In this document: piece by piece, positions 3,940 through 60,747 of the stretch
Layout: each line of letters opens with the position of its first letter
Position numbering within the stretch: position 1 is the stretch's first letter
Assembly (NCBI GenBank): GCA_001029715.1
Contig: CP011212.1
Span: 769,066 to 833,065, forward strand
DNA: 64,000 nucleotides
Source of the DNA: a candidate division TM6 bacterium GW2011_GWF2_28_16
GTDB lineage: Bacteria; Patescibacteriota; Microgenomatia; UBA1400; PJMF01
Direction of reading: 5' to 3'
Notes under the pieces: model-generated
Databases searched by the model: none
Seen by the model: only the letters and a program-made list of their open reading frames with translations
Told to the model about the DNA's origin: nothing
Made by a program: the position numbers and the translations under genes

Positions 3940-4411
3940 ATTTTTTTGGATTTTCTTGAAACTTCTTGAGACAACCACTAGCACAAAAATAATAATCATG
4001 ATCTTTGTGTTTAGTACTGTAATTGGCCGTTTTAGGTGATAAACGCATCTTGCAAACCGGATCGTGAACAAGAGGAAGTAAATCTTTCATTGCCAAAGTT
4101 AATTCATCAGCTATTTCTAACCCTCGATTTTGATCAATTAACACTTCGCGAAGTAAATCACTTGCTTTAATTATTTTTGGATCAGCCAATTTATATATAA
4201 TCTGCTTGCCTTCTCTTTTAGCAACAACTATGCCAGCATCGCGAAGTAACATTAAATGTTGACTAATATTAGCTTGTGGTAAATCAAGCATTTCATAAAT
4301 ATCAGAAACACAGAGCTCTTGCTCTCTCAACAAATTAACAATTTCAAGTCTTCTAGGATGAGCAAGTGCCTTAAGTAAATCAGCGTGAAGTGCAAACATT
4401 TGTCCATACAT
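3926..4411 (-). CDS. ArsR/SmtB-family transcriptional repressor fused to a C-terminal YHS/TRASH-like metal-binding domain
   Basis: Winged-helix core ('[13 protein letters not shown]...[28 protein letters not shown]') and C-terminal '[12 protein letters not shown]' YHS-type motif. Divergently and closely placed relative to the cop genes. Confidence 0.65.
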
Positions 4412-41620: not shown

Positions 41621-42241
41621 ATGACTGACCAAATGCAAATACCAGAAGTGCCAGAAGTCCAAGAAGTAAGAGTTCAATCTCCTAACTTAGTGAACATCTC
41701 TGATGTCGACAACAAGAAAGCTCGTTGGTACGTAGTGCACGTTTATTCTGGACATGAAAAGAAGATCGCTGAGGCCTTGCGCCAACGTGCTCAAACCTTG
41801 CATTTAACTGATAAAATTATTCAAGTTTTAATTCCTACTCAAGATAAAATTCAAATTCGTCGTGGCATGCGCAAAACCGTTAGTGAAAAGATTTTCCCAG
41901 GATATATGTTGGTTAAATTGGAAATGGCTGACGATGTTTGGTTGGCAGTGCGCACCACTGATGGTGTGACCGGCTTTGTTGGTATGAGTAGTAAACCTAC
42001 TCCACTCCCAAAAAGCGAAGTTGAAGCAATCATGAAATATACTGAACAATCTGGCGAAGCTTCTTACAAAGCTGACTTTGTCGATGGCGAAGCCGTCAAA
42101 GTGGTTGAAGGACCATTCAATGACTTCTTAGGCAGTGTTGACAAGATTGACGAAGAAAAAGGCAAAGTTACGGTCTTGCTCAACATCTTCGGTAGAGAAA
42201 CTCCAGTGGAATTGGATTTCTTGCAAATTAAGAAAGTTTAA
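41621..42241 (+). CDS. nusG: transcription termination/antitermination factor NusG (with N-terminal extension)
   Basis: NGN domain 'WYVVHVYSGHEKKIAEAL' and C-terminal KOW 'GEAVKVVEGPFNDFLGSV'. Confidence 0.85.
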   Translation: MTDQMQIPEVPEVQEVRVQSPNLVNISDVDNKKARWYVVHVYSGHEKKIAEALRQRAQTLHLTDKIIQVLIPTQDKIQIRRGMRKTVSEKIFPGYMLVKLEMADDVWLAVRTTDGVTGFVGMSSKPTPLPKSEVEAIMKYTEQSGEASYKADFVDGEAVKVVEGPFNDFLGSVDKIDEEKGKVTVLLNIFGRETPVELDFLQIKKV

Positions 42242-42336
42242 AACAAAAACCATTGCGGTCGGCATAGGGACGCCGAGCTTCTCCGCATGAAGGTTAATTA
42301 AAAATAGAAAACAAATGAAAATAAAGAAAGTCGTGT

Positions 42337-42759
42337 ATGGCAAAAAAAATTAAATCAGTTCTAAAACTCAATCTACCAGCTGGCACAGCAACTCCAGCAC
42401 CTCCAGTCGGTCCTATTTTAGGTCAGGCAGGTATCAACATGATGGATTTCTTGAAACAATATAATGCTGCTACTGCTGATCAAAAAGGTCAGGTTATTCC
42501 AGCAGAAATCACTGTTTTTGAGAACAATTCTTTTACTTTTGTTTTGAAATTGCCTCCAGTCTCTGACTTGATCAAGCAAACCCTCAAAATGAAAGCTGGT
42601 AGTTCTACTCCAGGCAAAGATAATAAAGCTAAAATCACTATGGATCAAATCAGAGCAATTGCTGAAAAGAAATTGCCAGACATGAATACTGAAAATATTG
42701 ATTCTGCTATGCAGAGTATTATTGGTTCAGCTAGATCCATGGGTGTTGAAGTCGTTTAA
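42337..42759 (+). CDS. rplK: 50S ribosomal protein L11
   Basis: 'KLNLPAGTATPAPPVGPILGQAGINMMDF' L11 N-terminal domain signature. Confidence 0.9.
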   Translation: MAKKIKSVLKLNLPAGTATPAPPVGPILGQAGINMMDFLKQYNAATADQKGQVIPAEITVFENNSFTFVLKLPPVSDLIKQTLKMKAGSSTPGKDNKAKITMDQIRAIAEKKLPDMNTENIDSAMQSIIGSARSMGVEVV

Positions 42760-42828
42760 TATTAAAAAATAAAATATAGTGGGAGGCTCAAGCTTTACTC
42801 AAGCCGTTCGCACCACCAGAAAGGAAAT

Positions 42829-43557
42829 ATGGGAAGCAAAAAAAATGTCGACATGTCCGCAACTGAGACTGAAATCAAAGTCGTCGAGGCAACTGAAGTA
42901 AAAGAAGAGACTGATTCTCAAGGCGAAGCAAAAGTCGAGAAAAAAATCACTAAAGCCAAAAAAGTTCGTGGCAAAAAATATCAAGCTGTCCGCTCTCAAT
43001 TGGATAAAAGCAAATTTTACACTGCCAAAGAAGCAGTTGAATTGGTGAAGAAACTTTCTTACACCAAATTTGTTGGTTCAGTTGAAGCCCACATCGTGGT
43101 TAGAGAAATTGGCGATAGTGTCAACATCGCTCTTCCTCATTCCACTGGTAAATCTGTCAAAGTCACCGTCGTTGACGCTCAAGTTTTAAGCGACATCGAA
43201 GCTGGCAAAATTGACTTTGATATTTTGGTCGCCGCTCCTGAATTTATGCCAAAATTGGCTAGATTCGCTAAAGTTCTTGGACCAAAAGGCCTCATGCCAA
43301 ATCCAAAAAGTGGCACCCTGACCCCAAATCCAGAACTTAAGAAAAAAGAGTTGGAAGCCGGTAAATTCAGCCTTAAAACTGAGAAAAAAGCTCCTCTCAT
43401 GCATTTGATTATCGGCAAAACCGATATGAAAAGTGCCGACTTATTGGCAAACATCGAAGCTTTAGTCAAAGCTTTGAAGGGCAAAATTCTTAAATTAAGT
43501 ATTGCTGCCAGTATGAGTCCTGGAGTTAAAGTTTTAGTTGAAGAAAGTGAAGAATAA
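42829..43557 (+). CDS. rplA: 50S ribosomal protein L1
   Basis: Overall L1 pattern ('KKYQAV...KFVGSVEAHIV', 'APEFMPKLARFAKVLGPKGLMPNPKSGT'). Confidence 0.9.
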   Translation: MGSKKNVDMSATETEIKVVEATEVKEETDSQGEAKVEKKITKAKKVRGKKYQAVRSQLDKSKFYTAKEAVELVKKLSYTKFVGSVEAHIVVREIGDSVNIALPHSTGKSVKVTVVDAQVLSDIEAGKIDFDILVAAPEFMPKLARFAKVLGPKGLMPNPKSGTLTPNPELKKKELEAGKFSLKTEKKAPLMHLIIGKTDMKSADLLANIEALVKALKGKILKLSIAASMSPGVKVLVEESEE

Positions 43558-43615: not shown

Positions 43616-44041
43616 CTAAATTTTAAACTTTATAGATAGCCACCTACCTTTTGAAGGAATACTATAGCTACCATGTCTCACACCTGATTTAACAAAATAT
43701 AATTTATATTCACCTATAGTTTGTGAGGCTCTAGGCAAACCAGCATAAACACTATCTTTGTCTACAATGACTATTTCTGTAATGCCATCAGCGCCATGAT
43801 CATGTTCATTAACTCTGCCTGAGTCTACAGTAATATTTTGATCAATACATTGAGACCAAAAACCAACTATTCTTCCATCTGACCCAGAGTATAAATTTTC
43901 TGAAGTCAATAATCCAACATGACCAGCAATTGGAGTTTTAGGCTCATCATCTGCTAAAAAAGCCGCTATTGAATCAGTATTTAGACCAACTACCGATAGG
44001 ACCTCATTTATTAAAGAATTATTTGGTTCTTTCTCTGACAT
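43616..44041 (-). CDS. hypothetical protein (141 aa) co-oriented with and 12 nt downstream of thrS
   Basis: ORF only; 'HDHGADG' and Gly-rich loops; no family recognised. Confidence 0.4.
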   Translation of the reverse strand: MSEKEPNNSLINEVLSVVGLNTDSIAAFLADDEPKTPIAGHVGLLTSENLYSGSDGRIVGFWSQCIDQNITVDSGRVNEHDHGADGITEIVIVDKDSVYAGLPRASQTIGEYKLYFVKSGVRHGSYSIPSKGRWLSIKFKI

Positions 44042-44053
44042 AAAGCGCCCGTT

Positions 44054-46078
44054 CTACTTTTTCAAAAACTCATCTAGCAAACTCAAATCTTGTGCACCTA
44101 AATCGCCACTTTGACTTAATTCTGCTTTTAATTCGCCGTTTTTGATCAATTCTTCTGCTCTCTCACGAGCTTTACCGCGCACGCGCACACCAACCTTATT
44201 AGCTTCAATTTCGCTGTCGCCAATAATAAGCATTAATGGCACTCTCGCTACTTCAGCAGCTCGAATTTTAGCCTGCAAACGCTCGGAGCGGTCATCAATT
44301 TCTACTCTAACGTCCTGGTCCAATAATTGGTTCATGATTTTTTGCGCATATTCCAAATGACGATCAGCGATGGGCAAAATTTTAACCTGCACTGGCGCAA
44401 ACCAGACTGGAAAATCGCCACCGTGTTGCTCAATTAAGAAAGCAAAGAAGCGTTCAAAAGAGCCAATTAAGGCACGATGAATTACAAAAGGACGTTGTTT
44501 TTCACCTTTTTCATCGACATAAGTAATGTCAAAGCGTTCTGGTAAGTTAAAGTCCACCTGAATCGTTGAAATACTATCTTCTTTGCCAAAAACATTCACT
44601 GCTTGAACATCGAGTTTGGGACCATAAAAAGCCGCCTCGCCTTTGGCTTCAACATAATCAACTCCGGCTTCATTGAGAATTTCGCGCATGATGTTTTCAG
44701 CTTTTTCCCAATCACTGCGCTTACCACAAGCTTTGAACTTTTCTTTATCTGGATCTGAAATTGAAAGACGGAAGTGATAATTATCGAAACCCATATCTTT
44801 GTAAAAAAGATCTAACATTTTCATTACTTCTTTGAATTGGTCCTTCAATTGCTCTGGTGTACAGAAAATATGAGCATCATTTTGCGTAAAACCGCGGACT
44901 CTCTGCAAACCATGCAATTCGCCAGATTTTTCGCGACGATAAACAGTGCCAAATTCACCCATCTTAACTGGCATGTCGCGGTAGCTATGACTTTTAAGTT
45001 TATAGACCATCATTCCAGCAGGACAGTTCATTGGTTTGGGATAATAGACTTCAGGCTGTCCTATAACTTTTCCCGAATCATCTTTTTCTTCGTAGGTCAA
45101 GGCTGGATACATACTATCTGCATAAAAACCTAAATGTCCTGATGTTTCAAATAATTCTTTTCTATTCAAATGAGGAGTCAAAATATGAACATACCCGAAG
45201 CGTCGCTCCATTTTCATCATGTAATCTTCCAAGACCCTGCGCATAGCATAGCCATTTGGCAACCAAACTGGTAAACCCTGACCAATTTCTGGAATGATCG
45301 CAAATAGCTCCATTTCTTTGCCAATCTTACGATGGTTGCGCTCTTCAGCCAGTTGTTTCTTGGTTAAATAATCATCTAAGTCAGCCTGTGAAGAAAAAGC
45401 TGTGCCGTAAATACGCGTCAGCATTTTATTTTTCTCATCACCGCGCCAATAGGCACCGGCGATACTCAAAAGTTTAAAAGCTTTGATTTCGGAAATTTTC
45501 TCGACGTGAGGACCCTTACACAAATCAGCAAAAGAAGCTAACTTAATACTAGCTTTATCGCTGTTTGACATCATTTCTAAACCAGCAATCAATTTTTTAT
45601 CTGCTTCAATTTGCTCGGGACGACCCGTCAAATACAGAGTAATTTTTTCTGGATTTCTCTCTAGCATCTGATGTTTGATCATCGATTTGCCATCACTCAC
45701 CGATTCACTTAGCTCAAAATCCTCAGCATGTTCTAAGCCATCGAGTAATTCTTGCTTATAAGAATTATTGGCAAAAATTTGTCTCGCTACTCCGAGAGAA
45801 ACCTCTACTCTTTCCATCAACAAACCTTGCTGGATAAGTTTTTTCATTTCTTTTTCAATCTTAGGAAAATCTTTTTCAGTGATTTTTAAGCCTTTTTCTT
45901 TGGCACTTTCGGCGATATCAAAGTCAAAATAAAAACCATCGTCGATGGCTGGCCCCATGGCTTTAATAATCACTGGATTACTTTTCTCATCACTGCCATA
46001 AAGTTTTTCCATGACTATAGTCAGAACGTGCTCCGCGCTATGACGCATAAGGAACAATTGGTCGATTGGTTTTTGCAT
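44054..46078 (-). CDS. thrS: threonyl-tRNA synthetase (begins at the editing/second additional domain; no separate N-terminal TGS segment evident)
   Basis: 'HSAEHVL' (HxxxH) editing-domain motif, class II catalytic core, C-terminal anticodon-binding domain. Confidence 0.9.
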   Translation of the reverse strand: MQKPIDQLFLMRHSAEHVLTIVMEKLYGSDEKSNPVIIKAMGPAIDDGFYFDFDIAESAKEKGLKITEKDFPKIEKEMKKLIQQGLLMERVEVSLGVARQIFANNSYKQELLDGLEHAEDFELSESVSDGKSMIKHQMLERNPEKITLYLTGRPEQIEADKKLIAGLEMMSNSDKASIKLASFADLCKGPHVEKISEIKAFKLLSIAGAYWRGDEKNKMLTRIYGTAFSSQADLDDYLTKKQLAEERNHRKIGKEMELFAIIPEIGQGLPVWLPNGYAMRRVLEDYMMKMERRFGYVHILTPHLNRKELFETSGHLGFYADSMYPALTYEEKDDSGKVIGQPEVYYPKPMNCPAGMMVYKLKSHSYRDMPVKMGEFGTVYRREKSGELHGLQRVRGFTQNDAHIFCTPEQLKDQFKEVMKMLDLFYKDMGFDNYHFRLSISDPDKEKFKACGKRSDWEKAENIMREILNEAGVDYVEAKGEAAFYGPKLDVQAVNVFGKEDSISTIQVDFNLPERFDITYVDEKGEKQRPFVIHRALIGSFERFFAFLIEQHGGDFPVWFAPVQVKILPIADRHLEYAQKIMNQLLDQDVRVEIDDRSERLQAKIRAAEVARVPLMLIIGDSEIEANKVGVRVRGKARERAEELIKNGELKAELSQSGDLGAQDLSLLDEFLKK

Positions 46079-46265
46079 AAGATCTTTCTTGATTTTAGTT
46101 ATTGTTATTTTACTTGTTTTTTTAGTATTTTGCGAAAGGTAGCAGTTCTGGTAACCTTAAGCTCCCATAATTGAGCTTAAGTGGGCCTGCCACTGTTTGT
46201 GGAACCGGATCTGAGAAATTTGGTTCGGGAGTCCAATTCTCCTCAAGTCCACCAGCTTTTATTTA

Positions 46266-46294
46266 TTGACAAAATTGTCAAAAAAATATATATT
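46266..46294 (+). promoter_or_regulatory. near-consensus sigma70 promoter (TTGACA-17-TATATT) embedded in the palindrome TTGACAAAATTGTCAA
   Basis: -35 at 46266-46271, a 17-nt spacer, -10 at 46289-46294. Points rightwards into a region with no annotated plus-strand gene. Confidence 0.4.
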
Positions 46295-46346
46295 TAGGCA
46301 ATTCTCAGACAAGGTTCCAAATTGCCACAACCAGTGGTGAACCATT

Positions 46347-46378
46347 AAATCGCTTTTAAAAAAGCGATTTTTTGTTTT
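46347..46378 (+). terminator. plus-strand rho-independent terminator (AAATCGCTTTT/AAAAGCGATTT hairpin + TTTTTTGTTTT)
   Basis: About 80 nt downstream of the promoter at 46266-46294, delimiting a possible small transcript. Confidence 0.45.
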
Positions 46379-46420
46379 AATCCGCTTCGGGCATTCCTTC
46401 GTCGTTTAAGCTCAGTCACA

Positions 46421-46452
46421 AAAAATCCCGCTCTTGGCGGGGTTCTCATTTT
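46421..46452 (-). terminator. minus-strand rho-independent terminator ending the 5-gene operon (CCCGC/GCGGG stem followed by ATTTTTTGTG)
   Basis: 'aaaaaatgagaaccccgccaagagcgggattttttg' on the minus strand, 100 nt after the stop of gene 46555-48645. Confidence 0.55.
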
Positions 46453-46554
46453 TTAAACAACAAAAATACCCCGCGCTCTAAGCAGTGGTAGTAGTGTTAT
46501 TTAAATTAAAATTTAGCATTACAAAGATGAATTATAAATCAAAAGAGGAAAACA

Positions 46555-48645
46555 TCAACCCGCTCCGCCACCACCACCTCCACCTCCACCGCCACCACCT
46601 CCAGAAAAACCTCCACTTGAACCACCTCCAGAAGCACCATAGCTGCTAGTGGCTGAGCTAGTCAGATTGGCAAAAGCACCGCCCAAAGAATTCAGCGAGT
46701 CAGTCAAAGAACCTAAGTTAATAGCACTTAAATTACCTACTGCGGAGCCATGTAAACTATCAAAGCTAGCAACTCCCCAATAGGTTCCCAAAACTCTTTG
46801 GTCAGCATCTGAGAAATGTACTGGCAATTGTGATAAAGCTTTCATCGACACTCCAAACAAAGTCCCATAAACCAAATATTTCTCCCACAAAATCACGCTA
46901 TCGATCGAATAGTCTTTAGTTTTTTTATAATCGAACATATGTTTTTTAAAAGCTTGCCACGCGCTAGCCTCTTCCCAACCTTTTTTAGTTCTTTTTTGGG
47001 CAAAATGTTGCAGCATAGAAAAAACCATTCCGATCGTAAAAAAGAGCAATAAATTAATTACAGCTAGAAATAAACCGATAGTAACTAAACTTGTGGTTTT
47101 TACTGATGGCTCTCCTTCTAACAAGTTACCAAGCATAAACAGGAGAATAAAGCTAAAAACAGGCACTAGAAAGACCCGTAGAGCCGAAAAACTTCTTGCG
47201 TAATCATAAGAATCTCTTTCAAAAAAACCTTGGCTAAGACCGCTATCTAAAGATGTTTTTTCCAAACCCTTAAAAAAGTTATAACTAGAAGAAGGATTAC
47301 TCTTAATATATTGGCTAATGTCGGTTAAAGCTAAGCGTCTTTTGGTTTTTTCAGTTGGTGTGGCGCTTAAAGCTCCTCGCTTTGTCCAGGTTTGTTCTTT
47401 TTCATCAAAAAATTGAAGATAACTTTTAGCAATTTTTTCAGTCAAAAACTCATAAACTTCCTGCTCCACTGCGGCTAATTCACTGGGTGAACGATTGGTT
47501 TTTTCCAAGAAATATTTGTACTCTTTGTGCAAAAAACCTTCTTTCTTATTGCTGCGAGTGATTTTGAAAAGTTTTTTAGCCACCAAAGACAAAACAGAAG
47601 CGGTAAAAACCTTTGGACTTAAACTTTTAGTCGCAGATAAAAGTTGTACCACCAAAGCTGGCTCCAAATCACTAGGTGGTTCCCAAACTCCACTTAAATT
47701 TTTTAATTTTTTATCTTTGCCCAAACGTAAAAACTTGGAAAACTCAACTACACTCAGGAAAACTCCAAGTAGAAAAAGCAATATCGTTGCTAAAAGATAG
47801 AGCAAACCCAAACGTTCGTTTTTCTTAACTTTAGCAATTGTTTCATCAATAAAAGATTGCTCCTCTTCTAAAATACTCGCTTCATTTGAAGAACCATTGA
47901 TTTCTCTCAAAAACATATTTGTTGGTAATAAAACTCTCCCTTCAAAAAACTTTCCAACTGGCAAGCGATCAGCCTGCAAAGAGACGAGATAAAGTCCAGT
48001 CTTTTCATCTGGCAAAGCAGAAATACTCACTTTCGCATTAAGTGGACCATGGCCAAAAGCCTTAACGCTATCAAGCTGGCTGGCCAAAATTTCTTTTGGC
48101 AAATAAATATCAACTTTGATGTTTTGGCTTGACACTTCCCAAGCATCACCAATAAATTGCCAATAAAGTTCAGCTATGTCTATGTGCTTAGTAATAGCAT
48201 TGCCAACTTTATAGCTCAAAACAAAATCTTTAACTTCGTAATTAGCCTGAAAGTGCCACTCTAAAAAATATTTGTCGCCCCGATCATCGATCAGAAAAGT
48301 ATTATCAGGATTGTTTCTGGGTTCTACTAAATTAGCTGAAGCCGTAGCCAAAGCTTTATAACAAAGCTCATTATTTTTTTCACAAAGCTTGAAATCGCTC
48401 AAAACATAAGGCACTTCTCTACCGTCGTTGCCTGGAACTTTGTTAATTTCTTGATAAACAAAACGATAATCACCTTGGAAATTAAATTGGCGCTCTTCCG
48501 TCACATCCATTGAGCCATCTTTATTGATGAAGGCTTGAATATTAACTGTGTCGATACTGTATTCTTTAGCAAAAGCACTACCAGAAAAAATGAAGGTAAG
48601 AATGAAAAATAGAAATAAAATTTTTTTATTCATAGCGTAAAGCAT
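46555..48645 (-). CDS. DUF2207-like membrane protein: signal peptide, large extracytoplasmic domain, transmembrane helices, C-terminal Gly-rich tail
   Basis: N-terminal 'KKILFLFFILTFIFSGSAFA', central hydrophobic helices, C-terminal 'GGGSSGGFSGGGGGGGGGGGGGAG'. Overlaps the upstream permease gene by 20 nt. Confidence 0.5.
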   Translation of the reverse strand: MLYAMNKKILFLFFILTFIFSGSAFAKEYSIDTVNIQAFINKDGSMDVTEERQFNFQGDYRFVYQEINKVPGNDGREVPYVLSDFKLCEKNNELCYKALATASANLVEPRNNPDNTFLIDDRGDKYFLEWHFQANYEVKDFVLSYKVGNAITKHIDIAELYWQFIGDAWEVSSQNIKVDIYLPKEILASQLDSVKAFGHGPLNAKVSISALPDEKTGLYLVSLQADRLPVGKFFEGRVLLPTNMFLREINGSSNEASILEEEQSFIDETIAKVKKNERLGLLYLLATILLFLLGVFLSVVEFSKFLRLGKDKKLKNLSGVWEPPSDLEPALVVQLLSATKSLSPKVFTASVLSLVAKKLFKITRSNKKEGFLHKEYKYFLEKTNRSPSELAAVEQEVYEFLTEKIAKSYLQFFDEKEQTWTKRGALSATPTEKTKRRLALTDISQYIKSNPSSSYNFFKGLEKTSLDSGLSQGFFERDSYDYARSFSALRVFLVPVFSFILLFMLGNLLEGEPSVKTTSLVTIGLFLAVINLLLFFTIGMVFSMLQHFAQKRTKKGWEEASAWQAFKKHMFDYKKTKDYSIDSVILWEKYLVYGTLFGVSMKALSQLPVHFSDADQRVLGTYWGVASFDSLHGSAVGNLSAINLGSLTDSLNSLGGAFANLTSSATSSYGASGGGSSGGFSGGGGGGGGGGGGGAG

Positions 48646-51193
48646 TTAAAGCTGAAATTTTTGTAGCTCTATAAGACGGATACATACCTGTAGCAACAGC
48701 GATAATGAAAGAAAGTGCCACTACACCCGCACCTAAATAAAATGGGATATAAACCAATTGAATGTAGCCGAGCCCTTTAGTTACAGAAATCATTGATAAA
48801 ATCAAACTAACCAATTGACCTGCCAAGGAACTAATTAAAAGTCCACACACCCCTCCAGACAAACCCATAACAATCGACTCTGCCAAAAATAAACGTTTCA
48901 CTTCATTTGATTTCATACCAATAGCCTTCATTAAGCCAACTTCTCTAGTTTTCTCCAAAAGTGAAACTGTTAGCGTATTAAACATTCCAAGCGCAGCAAC
49001 ACTTAAGGCCACCATGCCTAAAATTGAAAGCACAAACCTCACAGTATCAAACAAATCATTAATCTTACCCACTGTATCTACTACTGAGCTAGTTTGAAAA
49101 CCACTGGATTCAATACTTTGACGAATTTGATCAATTTTGTTTTGATCTTTAACTACAACTTTAATTTGAGAATAATTTTCTACTCCTAGACCCTTAATAT
49201 CATTAAATGGCATATAAAAAGCTGGCGTTTTTTCATCAGGAATAACAGCTACAATTGTAAAATCAGTTGGAGCAGATTCTGCCTGATAATCTGCCTTAGA
49301 AAAGAATTCTTGATCAAGCATAAAAGTAGTGTTAAAAACTTTCCCAACTGCATCAGCTTCATCAATTGCTAAAATTTTGAGCATAGCTCTATTAACTACG
49401 GCAACTTTTTGTGCCGACTCACGTAAAGGAATAACTTCTCTTTTTGTAATTGAAGCAGATGAAGAACCATCGCCCATACTATTCCAGTCCAAAGTACCAT
49501 CAGGCAATTGTTGCGCCATCAAAATAGTTCCATCTGCTAAAGCAATCTGACCACTATCGCTAGCCTCTTCTGAATCACTAGCTAAAGCACTTCCACTTGA
49601 TGAAGCACTGTTGGCAAGAGCACTCTCAATATTCTCTGCCAAAGATGCGCTAGCAGTTGATTCTCCTAAAACTTGACCGAACATTAGTGGTTCATCCATA
49701 TCTTCAATTAATACTCTATCTGCTCTTATATATGCTATTGCTTCTTTTTGTTTATTGTTGTCATCTAAATCTCTTAAATAAGTGTTATCACAAGTCTCTC
49801 CGCAATCAACTTTCTTCCAAAGTGGCAAACTCGCTCTCACCCAATAACCGACATTTTTGCCATTAACATTGCTGCCTACATTGCCCCAACCACTCTCGCT
49901 GTAATAAGATTCTCCATAAACTAATTCTCCAGAAATTAATAAATCATTTGTTTGAGAAGCATAAGTATTAAGAATCTGTTTGTCTTTAAAAACATCCGAG
50001 TAAAGTTCAATATATTTATTTTTGCCAATACTAAAGCTAATTGACTCGACTGTATCTCCCTCTATAAAACTTGGAAAAGCCGAAGCTAAAACTTTATATC
50101 GATCAATACTCATACTATCCTCAGTCATGTATCCTTGAATCAATTCTTGTCCATTTCCAGATTTAATAACTTGATACTTGCCGTCTACACAACCAAGCTC
50201 ATTTTCATCACAGATTCCACTCTTCCAGAGTGGCACAGTATCAACTATCCATGGACTGAAAACATTACTAAACAAATCGATGCCTTCGATTAAAGGTTCG
50301 CTGGTCTCATAAGACTCCCCCCAAACCTCACTTGCTTCAACATCTCCAACTCCTCTACTCGTGTAACCAAGAATTTTGGATTTTGTACTAGGCTCCGTAT
50401 AAACTGGCTTCCAAACCAATGGATAAATTGAGTAACGAGCTTGAGATAGCTCCTTTCCCAATTTTGCGCCACTCAAACGTTTAATAACTGCACCAGCAAC
50501 CTGACCAACAACATCGTCGTTTGATTCTATTTCTGCGGAGAGCTCCTTGTCTTCAAAAAGCGTCCCTTTAACTGGCTGAATAGCCGATTGTTGCAAAAAT
50601 TCTTTAGTTACTCCGTAAGCAACTACATCTGAAACAGAGTTGTTATAATTAACTTTAGAGACAATAGAAATCATTGGAATAACTAGCTCCACTCCTTCAA
50701 TATTTTTTAAATCATCCAAAGTTTTATCATTGATCGTTAAAGAAGCAGATTGACCGATGGTGACATTAATCTGTTTCATTTCATCTAATCTAGCTACTCT
50801 CGAAATAACTAGTTTTTGGACGCCATAGCCTAAAGATAATAAAAACACCACTGCTCCAAAGCCAATAGCCATGCCACCAATAGTAATAATAGTGCGGGTC
50901 TTCTTTAATTTTAAATGTCTGACAGCTAAATGTACTAAATCTAAAGAAGAAATTTCGCCCTCATCTTTGGAGTTAAGAGGTCCAATGATTTTTTTATAAA
51001 TAGTTTTAACTGGTTTTCTAAATGGGTTAGCAAGAATTCTAATAATTGGCCAATGACTAATAAATTTCAGAACATCAAAAAAAAGATAAATAATGACAAT
51101 TAAGAAAAAACGTAAGAAAAAGAACAACTCCTTAACAAAAGCAATGTAATTAAAACTCTTAAGCTTGGAAAGAAAGGATTTTAGTTTTGTCAT
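48626..51193 (-). CDS. MacB/FtsX-type ABC transporter permease with a very large (~600 aa) extracytoplasmic domain
   Basis: Transmembrane helix 1 'IITIGGMAIGFGAVVFLLSLGYGV', then a long soluble insert, then an FtsX 3-helix bundle at the C-terminus ('MKAIGMKSNEVKRLFLAESIVMGLSGGVCGLL'). Overlaps the ATPase gene by 4 nt. Confidence 0.7.
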   Translation of the reverse strand: MTKLKSFLSKLKSFNYIAFVKELFFFLRFFLIVIIYLFFDVLKFISHWPIIRILANPFRKPVKTIYKKIIGPLNSKDEGEISSLDLVHLAVRHLKLKKTRTIITIGGMAIGFGAVVFLLSLGYGVQKLVISRVARLDEMKQINVTIGQSASLTINDKTLDDLKNIEGVELVIPMISIVSKVNYNNSVSDVVAYGVTKEFLQQSAIQPVKGTLFEDKELSAEIESNDDVVGQVAGAVIKRLSGAKLGKELSQARYSIYPLVWKPVYTEPSTKSKILGYTSRGVGDVEASEVWGESYETSEPLIEGIDLFSNVFSPWIVDTVPLWKSGICDENELGCVDGKYQVIKSGNGQELIQGYMTEDSMSIDRYKVLASAFPSFIEGDTVESISFSIGKNKYIELYSDVFKDKQILNTYASQTNDLLISGELVYGESYYSESGWGNVGSNVNGKNVGYWVRASLPLWKKVDCGETCDNTYLRDLDDNNKQKEAIAYIRADRVLIEDMDEPLMFGQVLGESTASASLAENIESALANSASSSGSALASDSEEASDSGQIALADGTILMAQQLPDGTLDWNSMGDGSSSASITKREVIPLRESAQKVAVVNRAMLKILAIDEADAVGKVFNTTFMLDQEFFSKADYQAESAPTDFTIVAVIPDEKTPAFYMPFNDIKGLGVENYSQIKVVVKDQNKIDQIRQSIESSGFQTSSVVDTVGKINDLFDTVRFVLSILGMVALSVAALGMFNTLTVSLLEKTREVGLMKAIGMKSNEVKRLFLAESIVMGLSGGVCGLLISSLAGQLVSLILSMISVTKGLGYIQLVYIPFYLGAGVVALSFIIAVATGMYPSYRATKISALNALRYE

Positions 51194-51945
51194 GACTTTT
51201 CTGCCCTTCCTATATTACCTCTTTTAGAAACGCTGAGTTTTTTTAGACGCTCATCATTGGCTGAATACTCACCAACTACAACTCCATCGGCCATATTAAC
51301 AGATCTTGAAGCAAACTTAAGATATTCCAAATCGTGAGTAACCATAATGACTGTTTTTCCCTTATCATTAGATTGCTTAAATAAGGCCATAATGTCTTCA
51401 CTAGCTTTTGAATCCAAATTACCAGTTGGCTCGTCTGCCACGATCAAAGCTGGATCAGAAATCAAAGCTCTAGCTAAAGAAACACGTTGCTGCTGACCAG
51501 ATGAAAGTTCGGCAGGATTTTGGAGAGCACCTTGCTCCATGCCAACCATTTTTAAAACTTCCATCGCTCGTTTTTCTCTTTCTTCTTCTGGCAAACCACG
51601 CAGAGTTAAAGGGAAGTATACATTTTCAATAACGTTGAGCGATTTTACCCAGTTAGATTGCTGATAAATAATTCCAACCTGTTGCTTTCGCATTTGCGCA
51701 CGTCCATCTTCGTCAAAAGCATCGTAAATATTCTTGCCTAAGAAAATTACTTCTCCTTTGGTTGGAGGCTCCAAACCAAGCAAAATATTTAGCATAGTGC
51801 TCTTACCACAACCAGAGGGACCAAATAAAATCAAAAAATCACCCTTATTAACTGAAAAACCAGCTCCTTTAATAATCTGAGTTTCCTGAGTTCCCAGATT
51901 AAATGATTTATGAATTTCAGTTAGTTTAAGTATTTGTTCTGCCAT
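51190..51945 (-). CDS. ABC transporter ATP-binding protein (MacB/LolD-like)
   Basis: Walker A 'GPSGCGKST', signature 'LSSGQQQRVSLARAL', Walker B 'IVADEPTGNLD', H-loop 'VTHD'. Confidence 0.85.
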   Translation of the reverse strand: MAEQILKLTEIHKSFNLGTQETQIIKGAGFSVNKGDFLILFGPSGCGKSTMLNILLGLEPPTKGEVIFLGKNIYDAFDEDGRAQMRKQQVGIIYQQSNWVKSLNVIENVYFPLTLRGLPEEEREKRAMEVLKMVGMEQGALQNPAELSSGQQQRVSLARALISDPALIVADEPTGNLDSKASEDIMALFKQSNDKGKTVIMVTHDLEYLKFASRSVNMADGVVVGEYSANDERLKKLSVSKRGNIGRAEKS

Positions 51946-51952
51946 TTTATTT

Positions 51953-52342
51953 TTATTCTATTTTCGTTGGATCAAAATTAATTTTTTTAACTTCCGACCA
52001 CAAAAATGGACTGTCTTTATCAGTATGCAAAGATAGATAAAAGCCATCGGCTGGAATATCAGTTAGTAGAACTGCATGAATTGTTCCAGGAACACTGCTT
52101 GTTTGCTGTGCGACTTGTGAAAGGTTGGTTTCACTTTCTCCATACTTTGCAAAACCAATAGATTCTTTTTCTGAAGTCCAAAAAATAATAGCCTGATGAG
52201 GATCTACAAAAGTTACTTCAAAATGGTTCTCAATTTGGCGCTGTTGTTTATTAAAGATAAAAATTGACAATAAAAGCCCAGTTATAAAAGCCAAGCTTAG
52301 AACGATTAAAGCAATTTTTTGCTTTATATTTAATATTTTCAT
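51953..52342 (-). CDS. small membrane-anchored protein (N-terminal helix + ~100-aa extracytoplasmic domain) between the giant gene and the ABC genes
   Basis: 'IALIVLSLAFITGLLLSIFIF' helix; no motif. Spaced 2 nt from the giant gene and 7 nt from the ATPase gene. Confidence 0.4.
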   Translation of the reverse strand: MKILNIKQKIALIVLSLAFITGLLLSIFIFNKQQRQIENHFEVTFVDPHQAIIFWTSEKESIGFAKYGESETNLSQVAQQTSSVPGTIHAVLLTDIPADGFYLSLHTDKDSPFLWSEVKKINFDPTKIE

Positions 52343-52344
52343 TT

Positions 52345-55300
52345 TTACTTAGTTCCTAAAAATCCAAATATCAAAGACATATTGGAAACCACCAAATCTA
52401 AGGCATTGTCCGTAGCTTTTGGAGTAATTACTACTTTATCAACTGACTCTCCCACATTACTATACTGATCTTTTGATAAGGCTCGCAAGTGATAAACCTT
52501 CGATGGAGTTAATCCAGAAATAACAACTATATGGTGACTTGTTAAGGAAGCATCTTCTTGAGTTTTTTGTGAATAAGTTGAACCACTACCCTCTCCAAAC
52601 TCAATTTGGGCAGATGCTGGTTCATCCGTGTTAAACGAAACTAATAATTGAGCGGTTGATTCTTCTCCTACTCCAAGAATTTCTCCTTCCACTCTGAGAT
52701 CACTAATTTGAGGAGGCCTACTATCTGCCGAGGTTGCAATCTGTTGGAACTCACCAACAGCTTCATTACCAACGGCATCTTTACCTTTGATTAAAATTCC
52801 ATAAGTTGTCTGTGAATCAAGATCATAAATAATCATTTGATGTTTACCAGACTTAAGAGCAAGATTGACTTCGTCTTTGGCTGCCCCCGGAGCGGTAACT
52901 GGATAATAGGTTACAATTGAAGAAATACTGGTGTTTGATTCCCAAGTAACTAATAGAGTCGATCTAGCAGTCCCTTTAACTTGACTCACTTTAATATTTT
53001 TGATTTTTGGTCTTGGTAAAGTTTCGAATGAATGAATTTCACCCTCATATTCTTCACCCTCTGAGTCAAAAGAGTTAATTTTGTAATAATATTTAGTGCC
53101 ATCTTTCAAGTCTGAAAGTTGCACAGTGTGCGTACCCTCTCCAGAGCCAGTCACTACATTTTCGATTCCGCCAAAAGCAGATGATTCACCAAAATAAACT
53201 CTAACGCTAGCAGCATTTTTTGATATAAATTGAATTAAAGCACTGTCCAAACCCATACTTTTTACCTGAGGTTCTTCTGTTGTTGGAGCTGGCTCTGTAA
53301 CAAAAGTTGCTTCAGCAGACTCACCAGTGTTTCCATCTTCATCCGTCCATTTAGCAATATAATAGTAAGTAGTTCCCGGAGAAAGGTTGAGTAAGTTTAA
53401 TGCATGATTAGTTGCTTGAATGGAATTTGAAACTTCTTCATCAAAATAATCACCAGGACTCGTTCCATAAGATATCCTCGAATCAGCTGTTCTTGCTGTG
53501 GACCAAGCAACAGAAGCTTTTTTAGTGGTCACATTTGAAACCACTGGCTCAGATACTAGACCAGCTGGTTCAATAAATTTTCCATCTGGAAATAATTCAA
53601 CCACTTCAGAAAATGCACCACAATTATTAGTGCTATCACAAACTTTGACTTTGTAATAATACTCTTGCTGAATCAAACCAGTATCAACGTAAGAAATACC
53701 ACCACTAGTAGCTATTTGAGCAAATGTTTCACCATCTATTGATCGATAAATAGCATAATGATCAGAAATACCACCCTCCGACGGAGCTTCCCAAGACAAA
53801 GCAATCTTCCAAGAGCTAGTGGCTTTAACAGAAACATCAGCAATATCCATATTAAGTGGAATTCCTGGAGCAGTGGTGTCTGCTGTAAAGATAACCGACG
53901 CATAATTTGAGTAATTTATGTTTCCCGCTTCGTCTTTAGTCACAATATAAAGAACATTTTCACCTGGTAAAGTTGCATAAGCCCCAGCAACTAAATTTCT
54001 TACACTAGTTCCAGTGGTACTATGGGCTGTTGGCAATGCATTAATACTGTAATAATAAGACAAATTAGAAACTGAGCCATAATAAGTTCCTGTTGCTGGA
54101 GGATCCCAACTAAAAGCAAAGGAATTTTCCGTATTAGATGATGGCGTGACTACTAAATTAGTTGGAGGTGCTGGAGCATTGCCGCTATCTACATAATAAT
54201 ATGGTGTAGATGCGTAATCACTATAGTTACCAGCCTCATCTTTACTACGAACATAAAAAGTATTCGCTCCCACTTTATGTGAAGGTATACCAGTGACAGA
54301 AGTGCTAGTGATACATTGATCTTCTGCATAAGTTCCTGAAGTGGCAGCAGTTTTATAACAATATCCAGTAATCTGTGCTCCACTGCTGGTGGACTCACTC
54401 CAAGAAAAATCAAAACTATCCGTAGCTGAATAGCCAGATGGATCAGCCGATAAATCAGCTGGAGCGGCTGGGGGTCGCGAATCATATTTATAAATGAAAG
54501 GTGCCCAAGCTTCTGCTGAAACATTTCCAGCATTATCAATCGTCTTAACTCTCAAATAATAAGTCTCTCCATCGGTCAAATTGCTAGCAGAATAGTTGCT
54601 ATCAACTTGAAGCGAACCGTCTTCTTCTGGATTTGCTGATGAATTTGTTCCAAAGTAAACATAATATCCAGCTACCCCTGAACCAGTACTTGTATCAGAA
54701 GCTCCATCTGTAGATTCTGCATCTGGCCAATCAAAATATGGATTACTATGCCCATACCAATTTGAGGAAACTATTGCCGTTCCAGGATCACTATTGCTAT
54801 AAGTAGCTAAACCAGAAGTTTGTGGATTTGTTGGCGCAGAAGTGTCTTTGTAATAATTAACCGTATAATCATTAATAACGCCAGAATAGACGCCATCTGA
54901 TGATGAAAGTTCAAATTTTATTTCAAGGTAACGAGCTGCTGGAGACTTAATTTCATAAATATAGCTTGAACCATTCTTCTTCTCAGAGGCTACTGCAGTC
55001 CAAGACGACCAAGTACTATTGTCAGCAGAACTGCGTGTTTTAATGCTAAGAGAAGCGTTATTTGCTAAAACATAATCAACTTGTAAATTTATCCATTTGT
55101 AGACTGAATCTAAATCGTGAGAAACAGAAGTATAAGTTCCCTCTTCTTCAAAAGAAGAAGTAGCTGTCTCCATAATGTATGTATAAATTCCATTGTCATA
55201 ACCACCAGTGCCGGTACCAGATAGCATAAAAACTTTGTCCACTCCATTACTTTCACCAGATCCACCAACATAAATTTTAGAGGGTGCATTGCCTAATTGA

Positions 55301-58300
55301 GTCCAATTGTTATCTACCACTGAATATTTATAAAAATCATTATCATTTTCACCTCTAGCAGCATAGATATTTCCATCTCCACCGTAAGTCGCGAAGCCAT
55401 CATTGTAAACATCTATATTCAGGTCGCTAACAGCTGGATCACTCCAAGTATTGCTTGCAATGTCATAGCGATAAAAAGGATTATTGGCTACGTTTTGGCC
55501 CCTTAAGGTATAAATATAGTTATTACCATCAAAAACCAGCTCAGCTCCATAACCCAAACCAGCAGGCGAAGCAGTCATAGTAGACCATTTGCTACCAGCA
55601 CTACCCTGCGTATCAAATCTATAGAAAGTAGTATTTGCTCCACCCCTATTTAAATAAATATAACGAGATCCGTCATAAGCCATAGAGCTACCATAATCTG
55701 TAACAGCAAGAGTTGGATCATCAACTTCTTCAGACCAAGTATTCGAAGCAATGTTATAAACATAAAATCTTTGTAAATAATAGCCACCAGTTAGATAAAT
55801 TTTATTTTGCGTACTATCATAAACTAATGAAGATCCAGAATAAGTCCCAGTAGGAGTTGAAGCCAGTTTTTGCATTGACCCAGTGCTCGAATCATAACGC
55901 ACAAAATCATCTGAATAGTTTCCTTTGGTTAGATAAAAATAATTACCATCACCCTTAACAAGATCTTCTCCATAGCCAGGATATACATAGTCCGTACCTT
56001 GATATGTTGTCCCGAACAAACCTACATTAGGGATTAGCCAGCTATCCTTTGAAACACTATATTTATAAAAATTAGTTCTATTGCCACCAATAATGGCATA
56101 TAAACTGTCACCAACATTTTTAAGATTGGCTCCATAATAAAAGGTGTATGGGGCTGAAGAAACCTCCTCCCAAGTTTGATCTGAAGTTTTAAACTTATAC
56201 ATCTTGTCAGAATAATAACCAGGAACAAAATAAACTGCCTCCGCGCTTGGAACGTATTCTATTGACGATCCTAAATAAGATAATTGAGGTAAATCTGGCA
56301 GAACCGCCCAAGAATTTGAGTTCATATTATAAACAGCAAACCCATCGCGAATATTACCTTGAGTAGCATAAACAAAACCATTTTCTCTATCTATTGCTAG
56401 GTCAGCTCCAATATAAGCACTATTATTAACAGCATTGGTAGTAGCACCAAAATCTAAGTTTGATAAAGATTCCCAACTATCCCCAACAGCGTCATATCTC
56501 CAAAAAGCATCATCATTATTTCCACGCATTACATAAACGTGTCCAGAACCGTCATATTCCATGGAAGCACCATAATAAACTGCTAAAGGGGCGTCACTTG
56601 CATCTTCATCACTCCAAATATTGTTTTCTATGTCATAACGATAAAATGAAGAAGTATTATTACCACGCAAACCATAAAGATAACCGTCTGGTCCTTCCAC
56701 TACTCCACCGCCAATATAAATATTTCCTGGAGCATTAGCTAAAGTCGACCAAGTATCACTAGCTAGATCGTAACCATAAAAAGTTGCTACATTTGCACCT
56801 CTAAAAGCAAAAAGCTTGTTTAATGATGCAACGTAGGCTGTATTTTTTGCTCCATATTGCATAGTTGCTGGAACATTACTTAATGGCTCTTGTAACCAAA
56901 AACCTCCCTCTCTGCTAGCTAATTTTAGTTGATTATTGCCTGTGTTAATTTCATCAGCAGTACCAACAAAATCAGTTATTGTTAAACTTTGCGGTGGCGA
57001 AATACCTGCATAAACATAAGTGAATATTGTGCTTGCATCACTAATATTCCCATAGCTATCTTTTGTTTTAATTCTTAAATAATAAGAACCAGTACTTAAG
57101 CTTTCAGTTACAGTGTAATTACTATTTGTCTGAAAAAATCCTACTGATTCTGGATCAGCTACTTCATTACTACCAAAATAAACATAATATCCAGCAACCT
57201 CAGATTGCGCATCGGTTGCTCCACTCCATGAGAAGTAGGGGCGAATATAATTATATGTTTCTCCACTAGTCAGTGCTATACCAGCAACCTGCTGAGAGAG
57301 ACCACTAATGGCATCTGGATTGCTTGGTGCCAAAGTATCACCTGCATAAGAAATACTAATCTCACTTAACGTCGGGCTACTAGCAGAGCCGCTTGAAGCC
57401 ACCAGTGTTGCTTTAACCTGAATAAATCTTTGAGCTGGAGAAGAAATCACTCCGCTCGCCACAACAACCCAATCACTCCAAGATAAAGCGTCACTACTAG
57501 TTCTAGTTTCATAAATAATACTGCTATCGTCTGGAGTTGATGAGGTAGCAGAAAAAGCAGTAAAACTAGAAACGTAAGCTAGATCTTTAATTTCAGAGGT
57601 CCATGATCCAGTGGCATAATACTTATTTGCTGCAGGAGTATAAGTGAGAATATTTTGGCGACCATTTCCATAAGAAATATAAAAAGAATTATTGCTATCA
57701 TATTCAATAGAAGCACCTGCATAAACTCCATTATCCTGAGCATAATAACCAGGAATACTCTGCAATTTCCTCCAATTATCTAAAGAAATATTGTACTCAT
57801 AAATGTCTTTTTTGTACCAACCTGCCAAAGCAACAATTTTTCCATCATGGTAAGCAAGATCGGTGCCGTAAAATGGAGCAAATGGAGGCTTAGCAACTTC
57901 TGTCCATACATTGTCATTAATTGTATATTTAAAAAATCTGCTAATACCAACTCCAGGAATATAGAATATATCAGTACCATCAGAGATAAGACGAGAACCA
58001 TACGAAGACTCTGCATCCACAGGTAAATCAGCCACTGAGACATCATCCCAAGAGTTTCCAGAAATACTGTATCTCCAAAAAGAATTAGTGGTAGCTCCAC
58101 GCGTTGCATAGATATAATCTCCAGAACCAGGATAGGATAGAGCTCCTCCAAAACGCACTGTAGTTGGCGGAGCAGTCATCGTAGTCCAACTGTCTCCTGA
58201 AGGACTGTATCTATAAAAACTATTAGTGTTCCCGCCTCTAAAAAAATAAAGATCAGAACCAGCTACTACTCCTTTGACATCATCTGTCATTGTTCCTGGA

Positions 58301-59826: not shown

Positions 59827-60330
59827 ATGCCAAACCAACATAATCAAGAACAAATTAAAATCGTCCAAGAAAAATTGGACAAAGCCGCCTCCATGGTTGT
59901 GATCGACTACGCAGGTGCTGATGTAAAGAAATTAACTGAACTACGTGCTGCTCTAAGAGAAGCTGGTGGCGAAATGTTTGTCACTAAAAATACTCTTATT
60001 GATATCGCTGTTGGTAAAGGCAAGCTCACTGAATCCCTCCAAGGCATGAGTGCTGCCGTTTTTTCTTACAATGATCCAGTTTCCGCTATCAAAGCCTTAG
60101 TTAAATTTCATGACGAGACCGATTTACTTGAGATCAAACAAGGTTTCATGGACGACAAAGTCCTCTCTATCGATGAGGTTAAAGCTTTGAGTCAATTGCC
60201 AAGTAAGAACGAATTAATCGTCATGTTGATTCAGAGACTTAAAACTCCAGGTCAAGGTTTGGTTAATGTTCTTCAGGCTAATGCTCGTAACTTAGTCTAC
60301 GTTTTAAAAGCTATCACAGATAAAAAATAA
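59827..60330 (+). CDS. rplJ: 50S ribosomal protein L10
   Basis: 167 aa, L10 pattern ('VVIDYAGADVKKLTELR', 'LVKFHDETDLLEIKQGFMDDKVLS'). Followed 24 nt later by rplL. Confidence 0.85.
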   Translation: MPNQHNQEQIKIVQEKLDKAASMVVIDYAGADVKKLTELRAALREAGGEMFVTKNTLIDIAVGKGKLTESLQGMSAAVFSYNDPVSAIKALVKFHDETDLLEIKQGFMDDKVLSIDEVKALSQLPSKNELIVMLIQRLKTPGQGLVNVLQANARNLVYVLKAITDKK

Positions 60331-60354
60331 TAAGTAATAAAGAAAGGAATATAT

Positions 60355-60747
60355 ATGGCAGATGAGAAAAAACTCTCAGAAAAAGTCCAAAAGATCGTTG
60401 ACGGAGTCAAAGAACTTTCCCTTATGGAAGTTTCCGAGCTCGTTAGTGCTCTAGAGGATGTCTTTGGTGTAAGCGCAGCCGCTCCTATGATGGGTGCTAT
60501 GGCAGCCGCTCCAGCAGCAGCTGTTGAAGAGAAAGACGAATTTGACGTCATTCTTAAAGAAGCTGGTAGCAATAAAATTGCCGCCATCAAAGCCGTGCGT
60601 ACTCTTAAACCTGAATTAGGTTTAGGTGAAGCCAAAACTTTCGTCGAATCAGCTCCTAAGCCAGTCTTAGAAGGTGCTAAGAAGGAAGATGCCGAAGCAG
60701 CCAAAAAGACTTTGGAAGAAGCCGGTTGCGTCGTTGAATTAAAATAA
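60355..60747 (+). CDS. rplL: 50S ribosomal protein L7/L12
   Basis: N-terminal dimerisation helix, Ala-rich hinge '[16 protein letters not shown]', C-terminal domain '[29 protein letters not shown]...EAGCVVELK'. Confidence 0.9.

Follow-up and report, generated by a model that had tools for sequence, protein, structure and literature searches.

A 64,000-nucleotide stretch of the genome of candidate division TM6 bacterium GW2011_GWF2_28_16 (contig CP011212.1, forward-strand positions 769,066 to 833,065), which in its entirety we call the window, carries on its minus strand five closely packed genes that span 46555-59463 and encode, in order of transcription, a giant surface protein, a small membrane-anchored protein, the ATPase and the permease of an ATP-binding cassette (ABC) pair, and a DUF2207 protein; all coordinates of features within this block refer to the minus strand. 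We conclude that the ATPase and permease are probably a type VII ABC "mechanotransducer" of the YtrEF kind and that they and the giant protein probably work as one surface apparatus. That the ABC complex serves the giant protein as its ATP-driven base in the membrane, coupled to it both functionally and physically, we put at about even odds (a probability of roughly 0.5), and we hold the details of the coupling less firmly than that. An original prediction, made from the letters of 46555-52342, had described the last four genes; their open reading frames (ORFs) were all found where it had placed them, with the domains, the glycine tail, and the overlapping stop and start codons that it had reported (ORF, Pfam, and junction checks). 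The conserved partner, a giant Kelch/FN3 protein, lies outside the part that it had covered: the fifth gene of the block is an ORF of 2372 residues at 52345-59463, only 2 nt upstream of that of the small protein. The gap between the small-protein and ATPase genes is 7 nt, the ATPase and permease genes overlap by 4 nt (ATGA), and the permease and DUF2207 genes overlap by 20 nt, or by 8 nt if DUF2207 starts at Met5.

Gene order is what ties the giant protein to the ABC pair. Our scan took one genome per species and found at least 558 loci encoding a relative of the permease, 80 of which were fetched. For 63 of the species-representative loci, 3 kb or more of upstream DNA was available. In 54 of these a homolog of the giant gene stands directly before the ATPase gene, upstream and in the same orientation. 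It is present but rearranged in eight more, being divergent in L041 and L071, downstream in L057, and 1.5-3 kb away from the ABC genes in L040, L043, L044, L051, and L080; a single locus lacks it. Since the linkage outlives changes of gene order across deep clades, we take it as strong evidence for a functional tie between the giant protein and the ABC pair. The ATPase gene adjoins the permease gene in nearly all loci and is fused to it in some, and nothing downstream of the permease is conserved across the 80 loci. The conserved unit consists of the giant gene, then (where present) the gene for the small FN3-like anchor, then those for the ATPase and the permease.

Every informatively titled record among the 80 fetched loci comes from the Patescibacteria or candidate phyla radiation (CPR), with Pace-, Woese-, Collier-, Shapiro-, Davies-, Beckwith-, Dojka-, Moranii-, and Nomurabacteria and WWE3 represented. 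Many "binchicken" third-party annotation records of metagenome-assembled genomes with the locus (L002-L080) are titled Pseudomonadales, Gammaproteobacteria, or Bdellovibrionales, and as taxonomy these titles look unreliable. For the permease and small protein of the window, 100% identical matches were found in Candidatus Pacebacteria bacterium GW2011_GWF2_38_9, a member of the CPR/Patescibacteria. In three loci a CHASE4-PAS-HisKA-HATPase_c kinase and two receiver-only response regulators (Pfam) stand between the giant and ATPase genes (L040:5920-8939, L044:4361-7209, and L080:6088-8997), which hints at a signaling input or output of the module in some lineages.

The giant protein is predicted to be secreted or anchored at the surface, with two Kelch regions and immunoglobulin (Ig)-like and FN3 arrays; Pfam matched Kelch_1/3/4/6, beta-propeller families, fn3, Pur_ac_phosph_N, and PhoD_N. 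Its N-terminus (59353-59463) carries a putative signal peptide or membrane anchor with hydrophobic residues 10-33, where cleavage would fall between MVSGFNNREFFVLRIAFVVMSFFALNLLFYEFPVRA and the S that follows, and homologs have comparable N-terminal hydrophobic segments ending in small residues of the "..FA" type. Most of the protein is a variable "head" (~residues 40-1500, 54964-59346) of Kelch propellers and Ig-like spacers, which is confined to the long-permease clade described below and is covered by only ~16 of 67 giant homologs; the giants of other clades bear other heads, e.g., Laminin_G_3. The only part common across loci is the C-terminal ~850 residues, comprising a "stalk" (~residues 1520-2345, 52429-54906) with an array of FN3-like and Pur_ac_phosph_N-like domains that 65-66 of the 67 homologs cover; fn3, Pur_ac_phosph_N, and PhoD_N were identified by Pfam in the stalk here and in seven of seven homologs from other clades. 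The stalk is followed by a near-invariant C-terminal peptide, ITPKATDNALDLVVSNMSLIFGFLGTK (52348-52428). Its last ~25 residues, of the form "...ITPKAT(E/D)NAL(N/D)LV..NL...FGFLG", recur in all 68 homologs with a visible C-terminus and in all clades, though the heads differ. With an Eisenberg hydrophobic moment of 0.29-0.36 and a mean hydrophobicity of 0.41-0.53, the peptide has the character of an amphipathic helix, and this candidate docking helix may dock on the permease. A homology search with the giant C-terminus returned unnamed fragments only, and Pfam identified no hydrolase or coiled-coil domain in the window protein or in its homologs from other clades. Some loci contain two tandem giant paralogs, each with the conserved C-terminal peptide (L041:660-9111, minus strand, and L076:12-8853, plus strand).

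Sequence profiles and a structural model place the permease (855 residues, 48626-51193) among the type VII, or MacB/FtsX-fold, ABC subunits, which bears out the fold that had been proposed. Pfam identified MacB_PCD in two stretches (E-value 4.1e-19) and FtsX at residues 724-847 (3.1e-15), and the closest solved structure to a profile of 107 permease homologs was Bacillus subtilis YtrF (9o9x/9o9y; 1.1e-36), the next matches in the PDB being MacB (5e-26) and then Spr0694/5, LolF, and LolC/E (LolC, 3e-11). An AlphaFold model with a mean predicted local distance difference test score (pLDDT) of 87.7 matched MacB, YtrF, and LolE by Foldseek with E-values of 6e-14 to 4e-13, and HrtB, BceB, FtsX, and LolC were matched as well. 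A Porter core was found between the first and second transmembrane helices, TM1 and TM2 (split MacB_PCD and Foldseek), as was an FtsX-type C-terminal helical bundle (Pfam FtsX; alignment to YtrF, MacB, and LolC/E), and the cognate ATPase, of the clade of FtsE, LolD, and the MacB nucleotide-binding domain (NBD), adjoins the permease or is fused to it. The fused form is a single MacB-like polypeptide of 966-1126 residues, e.g., at L003:8978-12358 and L021:9155-12055. The ATPase of the window has 251 residues (51190-51945; Pfam ABC_tran, 7.6e-32), and its best NCBIfam models were FtsE (199.4 bits against a cut-off of 264.85), DarD, LolD, and the MacB NBD, all under cut-off, in agreement with the LolD/MacB-like motifs noticed earlier. 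The permease likewise scored far below the NCBIfam equivalog cut-offs for MacB (59.8 against 966 bits), lolCE (64.5 against 362), and FtsX (25.9-31.9 against 225-255), and therefore falls outside the named equivalog families; the earlier judgment that this is no textbook MacAB, FtsEX, or Lol system was sound.

MacB, FtsEX, and LolCDE work by mechanotransmission rather than by transmembrane transport. Type VII ABC systems have been described as mechanotransducers (PMC11466899). YtrEF, the closest solved relative (26% identity in the Foldseek alignment), resembles the window's pair in having a separate ATPase and one permease gene, a MacB-type fold with four transmembrane helices and an outer domain, and a host without an outer membrane. 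Unlike the window permease, YtrF has only 436 residues, with an outer domain of normal size and without SH3b-like modules, an extra N-terminal helix, or a giant neighbor; YtrEF is encoded in a ytrGABCDEF operon under the repressor YtrA, whereas the neighbors in the window are the giant, small, and DUF2207 proteins.

From its N-terminus the permease runs through an extra helix, an elbow helix, TM1, and the extracytoplasmic domain to TM2-TM4, which make up the FtsX domain. The original prediction had correctly given TM1, an outer domain, and three further transmembrane helices; it had overlooked the extra hydrophobic helix at residues 16-46 (51056-51148; Kyte-Doolittle peak 2.49, pLDDT above 90), in which F29 is near-invariant among the 107 homologs. 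This helix is possibly a fifth transmembrane helix or an in-plane helix, and to our knowledge it has no counterpart in MacB, LolC, or FtsX. The most conserved part of the permease is the FtsX-type bundle of TM2-TM4 with the coupling region (48629-49084), which has dense invariant columns at 726-855 and aligns to YtrF residues 242-435.

The extracytoplasmic domain (about residues 134-715) is oversized, as had been stated. The corresponding domains of MacB and YtrF have about 200-230 residues, and the ~581 residues of the domain here amount to ~2.5-3 times that size. The actual insertion relative to the MacB core, however, comprises ~350 residues (237-580) and not the 600 that had been claimed. 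When long (820-880 residues) and short (640-740 residues) permease homologs were compared by alignment, the extra length was seen to consist of a duplicated ~130-residue all-beta module and a disordered Ser/Ala linker. Module A (residues 237-370, 50084-50485) follows the first Porter half, combines an SH3b-like beta core with a Trp- and Cys-rich extension, and is present in every member of the permease family, with conserved residues W261, W291, W315, and W323 and the Cys pair C328/C335. Module B (residues 371-506, 49676-50083) is a diverged duplicate of module A with a conserved Trp and the Cys pair C464/C468; it occurs only in long-form permeases and appears as a gap in the short forms. A BlastP match between the two modules (4e-4 over 122 aligned positions) supports internal duplication. 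The acidic linker (residues 507-580, 49454-49675) leads back to the MacB core, is rich in Ser and Ala (17 and 13 of its 74 residues, respectively), varies in length among homologs, and is mostly disordered, with pLDDT below 50 at 507-547 and 575-580.

Modules A and B modeled on their own gave a confident all-beta fold (pLDDT 93.8). The structural search suggested along with the prediction of this insert yielded no match with an E-value of 1e-3 or less when the modules were compared by Foldseek with two libraries, of solved and of viral predicted structures. In both libraries the sub-threshold matches of highest probability were SH3b wall-binding proteins (E-values of 0.02-0.07), namely, among solved structures the phiSM101 endolysin 4krt, the endopeptidase 3m1u, and the NlpC/P60 dipeptidyl-peptidases 4r0k and 3npf, and otherwise a BFVD "Lysin-wall binding ... 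SH3b" protein, two MurNAc-LAA amidases, and an "SH3 domain protein". Pfam SH3_3 was the sole family to recur, below its gathering threshold, in two of 30 members with a best E-value of 0.012, and the module of the window gave no hit to it. An hmmsearch with the module A profile against 1.84 billion representative proteins (E-value of 1e-3 or less) found only 149 proteins, nearly all of them in the permease family, so that the SH3b-like module is nearly confined to it. Most of the matches from elsewhere were genuine tandem SH3_3 proteins, such as P0253 (2.6e-7; five stretches matched in a protein with five SH3_3 domains), P0270 (4.2e-5; four stretches, four SH3_3 domains), and P0276 (2.8e-4; three stretches, four SH3_3 domains plus NlpC/P60), with the caveat that the scores of such arrays are summed over repeats and that a Big_2 repeat protein likewise reached 2.4e-5. 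We consider it likely that each module is a divergent SH3b-like core with a family-specific extension. The resemblance to the SH3b (SH3_3) domains of endolysins and NlpC/P60 hydrolases lies in the N-terminal ~60 residues of each module, by profile and weakly by fold; unlike those domains, the modules have ~130 residues, a Trp-rich extension, and a Cys pair, and they are set in an ABC permease rather than a hydrolase. In the literature we found no description of the gene module, and no type VII permease reported to have SH3b-like inserts.

The second module goes together with the small protein and the Kelch head. The small protein (129 residues, 51953-52342) has a transmembrane helix at residues 12-30 and a beta domain of ~90 residues that is weakly FN3-like (Pfam Pur_ac_phosph_N, 0.016; a weak hhalign match to an FN3-like domain of the giant protein, E-value 0.0024 with 12% probability); it matches no Pfam or NCBIfam family over threshold, and its homologs are all unnamed. 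The idea that it is a minimal adaptor did not survive: no HlyD or biotin-lipoyl-type match was found even at E-values of up to 10, and we reject a MacA-type membrane-fusion adaptor for this protein. It was present in 16 of 17 long-permease loci with a visible giant stalk, being absent only from L015, and in no short-permease locus. Since module B could not be called reliably in relatives by Blast, owing to cross-matches with module A, we classed loci by permease length as long or short. Of 56 loci with a complete giant gene, 13 show all three traits (long permease, small protein, and Kelch head), one (L015) has only the long permease, and the other 42 have none of the three; L076, where the giant gene is cut at the contig edge and which falls outside these 56, combines a short permease with a Kelch-type giant.

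The DUF2207 protein, by comparison, is a recent local add-on outside the conserved module. Gene linkage in relatives, which the original prediction had named beforehand as the point on which it could fail, held for the ATPase, permease, and small protein and broke down for DUF2207. The gene (46555-48645) encodes a lineage-specific membrane protein of 696 residues with a poly-Gly tail, and both of its Pfam domains are over threshold (N domain, 90.5 bits against 24.4, 1.9e-25; C domain, 109.3 bits against 33, 3.3e-31). Apart from the overlap here, the only loci in which DUF2207 runs across the permease stop codon are those of the two closest relatives (L081 and L083; 75% and 68% permease identity). 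The gene is missing downstream in L082 (63% permease identity) and adjoins the permease in none of the 80 species-representative loci, and on this synteny we reject it as a member of the system. It is probably co-transcribed with the permease here. Its C-terminus (46558-46680) consists of a run of 13 Gly and a final AG; the codons are a mixture of GGA, GGT, and GGC with no homopolymer tract, and the tail is kept in the DUF2207 homologs of L081 and L083 (69% and 67% identity, respectively); the mixed codons and this retention argue for selection on the tail as protein and against a slippage artifact. We found one functional study of a DUF2207 protein, Streptococcus mutans SMU.243 (PMC10457818).

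The working we propose for the system is as follows. Two ATPase and two permease subunits would assemble as in MacB, FtsEX, and YtrEF, and ATP binding and hydrolysis would move the extracytoplasmic domain with no substrate carried across the membrane. In this family the domain has a single SH3b-like module, doubled in the long form of the window, with a flexible Ser/Ala linker as its tether. The N-terminal signal of the giant protein would route it through Sec, and its stalk and C-terminal peptide would dock on the extracytoplasmic domain of the permease or in an outer-leaflet groove, where the ABC complex could hold the giant protein, alter its conformation, or free it in an ATP-dependent manner. 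The SH3b-like modules might have as their ligand either the stalk or the cell wall, and in the latter case they would brace the complex. In the long-form clade the small FN3-like anchor would be an additional stalk-like subunit that corresponds to the second module. Such an apparatus would probably serve these episymbiotic bacteria in deploying or controlling a structure for contact with hosts or surfaces. A bolder form of the proposal, which we regard as doubtful, is a hitherto unrecognized ATP-powered surface organelle of Patescibacteria, in which an ABC motor, braced on the wall by its SH3b-like modules, grips the invariant C-terminal helix of the giant FN3-stalked fiber and an exchangeable head (Kelch, lectin-like, or others) contacts the host. 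If this is true, ATP hydrolysis inside the cell would power the attachment, tension, or release of the epibiont, and the system would be the first of type VII to have a giant adhesin-like fiber as its "substrate".

The tight gene spacing and the single terminator-like site after the block speak for the giant protein and ABC pair as one apparatus. Several points weigh against it. The contact between the two is deduced rather than directly evidenced, and conserved adjacency could mean co-regulation without physical interaction. The co-variation of the long permease, small protein, and Kelch head may stem from a single ancestral event in one clade. The SH3b assignment lies under the Pfam threshold and under Foldseek significance (best E-values 0.012 and 0.02-0.07, respectively), and the Big_2 repeat protein reached its 2.4e-5 in the module A search by repeat summing. 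The giant protein lacks a hydrolase or coiled-coil domain of the kind found in FtsEX partners. Finally, YtrEF offers no mechanistic precedent for a giant partner, since it has no established function and deletion of ytrF gave no clear phenotype (PMC12772383).

Of the other explanations that we weighed, one borrows its mechanism from LolCDE: ATP would be used to pull the N-terminal signal-anchor or the C-terminal peptide of the giant protein from the outer leaflet, in a one-shot maturation or release to the wall, to an S-layer, or by shedding. LolCDE is of the same fold class (PDB and Foldseek matches) and extracts lipid-anchored proteins from the outer leaflet by ATP hydrolysis, and is thus a precedent for a protein "substrate" outside the cytoplasm. 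The N-terminal hydrophobic anchors of giant homologs are long and in the short-form clades carry conserved motifs, e.g., "RFQFNL"; the C-terminal peptide is hydrophobic as well, and the linkage of the giant gene supports extraction equally. However, LolCDE is a two-permease heterodimer with a Hook that recruits LolA, handles lipoproteins, and works in diderm hosts, whereas the locus here has a single permease gene with no LolC/LolE pair, encodes no LolA-like acceptor, and falls short of the Lol family models (lolCE, 64.5 bits against 362). Extraction would also leave the SH3b-like modules unexplained, and we think it unlikely.

We give similarly low weight to wall remodeling after the manner of FtsEX, in which the modules would bind peptidoglycan and the complex would control a hydrolase encoded elsewhere, the giant protein being merely a co-expressed neighbor in the wall. 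SH3b domains are typical wall-binding parts of endolysins and NlpC/P60 hydrolases, the ATPase scores best against the FtsE model of NCBIfam, and a role in wall metabolism has been suggested for YtrF (PMC8060467). The closest analog of the working that we propose is indeed FtsEX together with EnvC, PcsB, CwlO, and RipC as partners, in that the outer domain of a type VII complex binds and actuates an extracellular partner with no solute transport. The FtsX outer domain has ~100-150 residues against ~581 here, scores fall short of the FtsX and FtsE models (26-32 bits against 225-255, and 199 against 265), and the FtsEX partners are coiled-coil hydrolase activators or hydrolases, whereas the partner here is an FN3-stalk protein of 1000-2400 residues. 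Pfam identified no LytM, CHAP, or NlpC/P60 domain in the gene block, and the locus has no coiled-coil partner. Remodeling of this kind would leave unexplained both the invariant C-terminus of the giant protein and the persistence of its linkage through rearrangements.

In our view it is very unlikely that the system is an ordinary pump of the MacB type, one that exports a peptide, toxin, or antimicrobial or gives resistance to it, with the large domain a lineage decoration and the giant protein functionally unrelated. MacB_PCD and FtsX are generic families, and homologs have been annotated by the Joint Genome Institute (JGI) as "ABC-type antimicrobial peptide transport system permease". MacAB-TolC, Spr0693-0695, and YknXYZ do share the MacB_PCD (Porter/Sabre) core and the FtsX bundle with the window permease (structural E-values of 1e-11 to 1e-14), and the NBD is fused in some relatives. 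Unlike MacAB, the locus here has no membrane-fusion adaptor, exit duct, or outer membrane component, and no HlyD-type adaptor gene is conserved in the 80 loci; the outer domain is ~2.7 times larger and has inserted modules, and the MacB equivalog score is 59.8 against 966. In addition, no peptide or bacteriocin gene is conserved nearby, and the linkage to the giant gene is strong across deep clades. Least probable is a sensory role, in which a two-component system would receive an envelope or contact signal by way of the complex, as Bce-type type VII transporters signal to kinases (PMC11466899): the CHASE4-PAS kinase and two receivers occur inside the cluster in L040, L044, and L080, but this arrangement is found in only three of 63 loci, the block in the window has no kinase or regulator, and the permease has 4-5 transmembrane helices against 10 in BceB.

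We regard the system as a branch of the type VII ABC systems in which both the extracytoplasmic module and the class of partner are new. Among the known jobs of type VII systems, FtsEX activates wall hydrolases, LolCDE extracts lipoproteins, MacB expels drugs and toxins, and BceAB senses peptides. If our reading of the ABC complex as the base of the giant protein is true, a family that is this widespread and serves a giant surface protein would add a new one to these. It would also provide a functional handle on the giant surface proteins of CPR/Patescibacteria, presumed mediators of host-cell contact, and on the YtrEF-like branch, whose role is obscure even in B. subtilis. With its 3-4 genes the module is compact; it occurs in hundreds of species and has clear predicted interfaces in the C-terminal peptide and the SH3b-like modules, so that it is directly testable.

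Transcription of the block probably ends at a terminator-like GC hairpin, CCCGCCAAGAGCGGG, followed by the T-run ATTTTTTGTG (46427-46441, minus strand), ~115 nt past the DUF2207 stop codon. A terminator scan placed no such site at any of the four junctions of the five-gene block. Four other minus-strand matches were found in the unit, three inside the DUF2207 and giant coding sequences (47185-47173, 53633-53615, and 53784-53771) and one ~400 nt upstream of the giant start codon (59882-59861); all of these sites are consensus matches only, and their regional total equals the shuffle expectation. A promoter scan of the region found sites no commoner than in shuffled sequence.

The 476-nt spacer between DUF2207 and thrS (46079-46554) contains a bidirectional form of the terminator-like hairpin (46424-46444) and a second hairpin at 46347-46370, and it could include a leader of the threonyl-tRNA synthetase (ThrRS) gene; Rfam had no match in this spacer or in the gene block. 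ARAGORN reported a 93-nt "tRNA-Asn" with anticodon ATT at 2884-2976 (minus strand), which lies inside an ORF at 1699-4071 and on which Rfam was silent at its gathering threshold; it is probably a false positive. PADLOC gave nothing beyond generic ABC-ATPase similarities, and we reject a known anti-phage defense system. The five genes belong to a longer minus-strand block (43616-59463) that consists of a 141-residue ORF, ThrRS, DUF2207, the permease, the ATPase, the small protein, and the giant protein. This block is flanked on one side by nusG-rplK-rplA (41621-43557, plus strand) and on the other by plus-strand ORFs of 167 and 130 residues (59827-60747), which hold the same position as the Ribosomal_L10 and L12 genes that adjoin the giant gene in L081 and L083. 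Since the block sits between rplA and these ORFs in the position of L10 and L12, the normally contiguous rplKAJL cluster is split here by ~16 kb.

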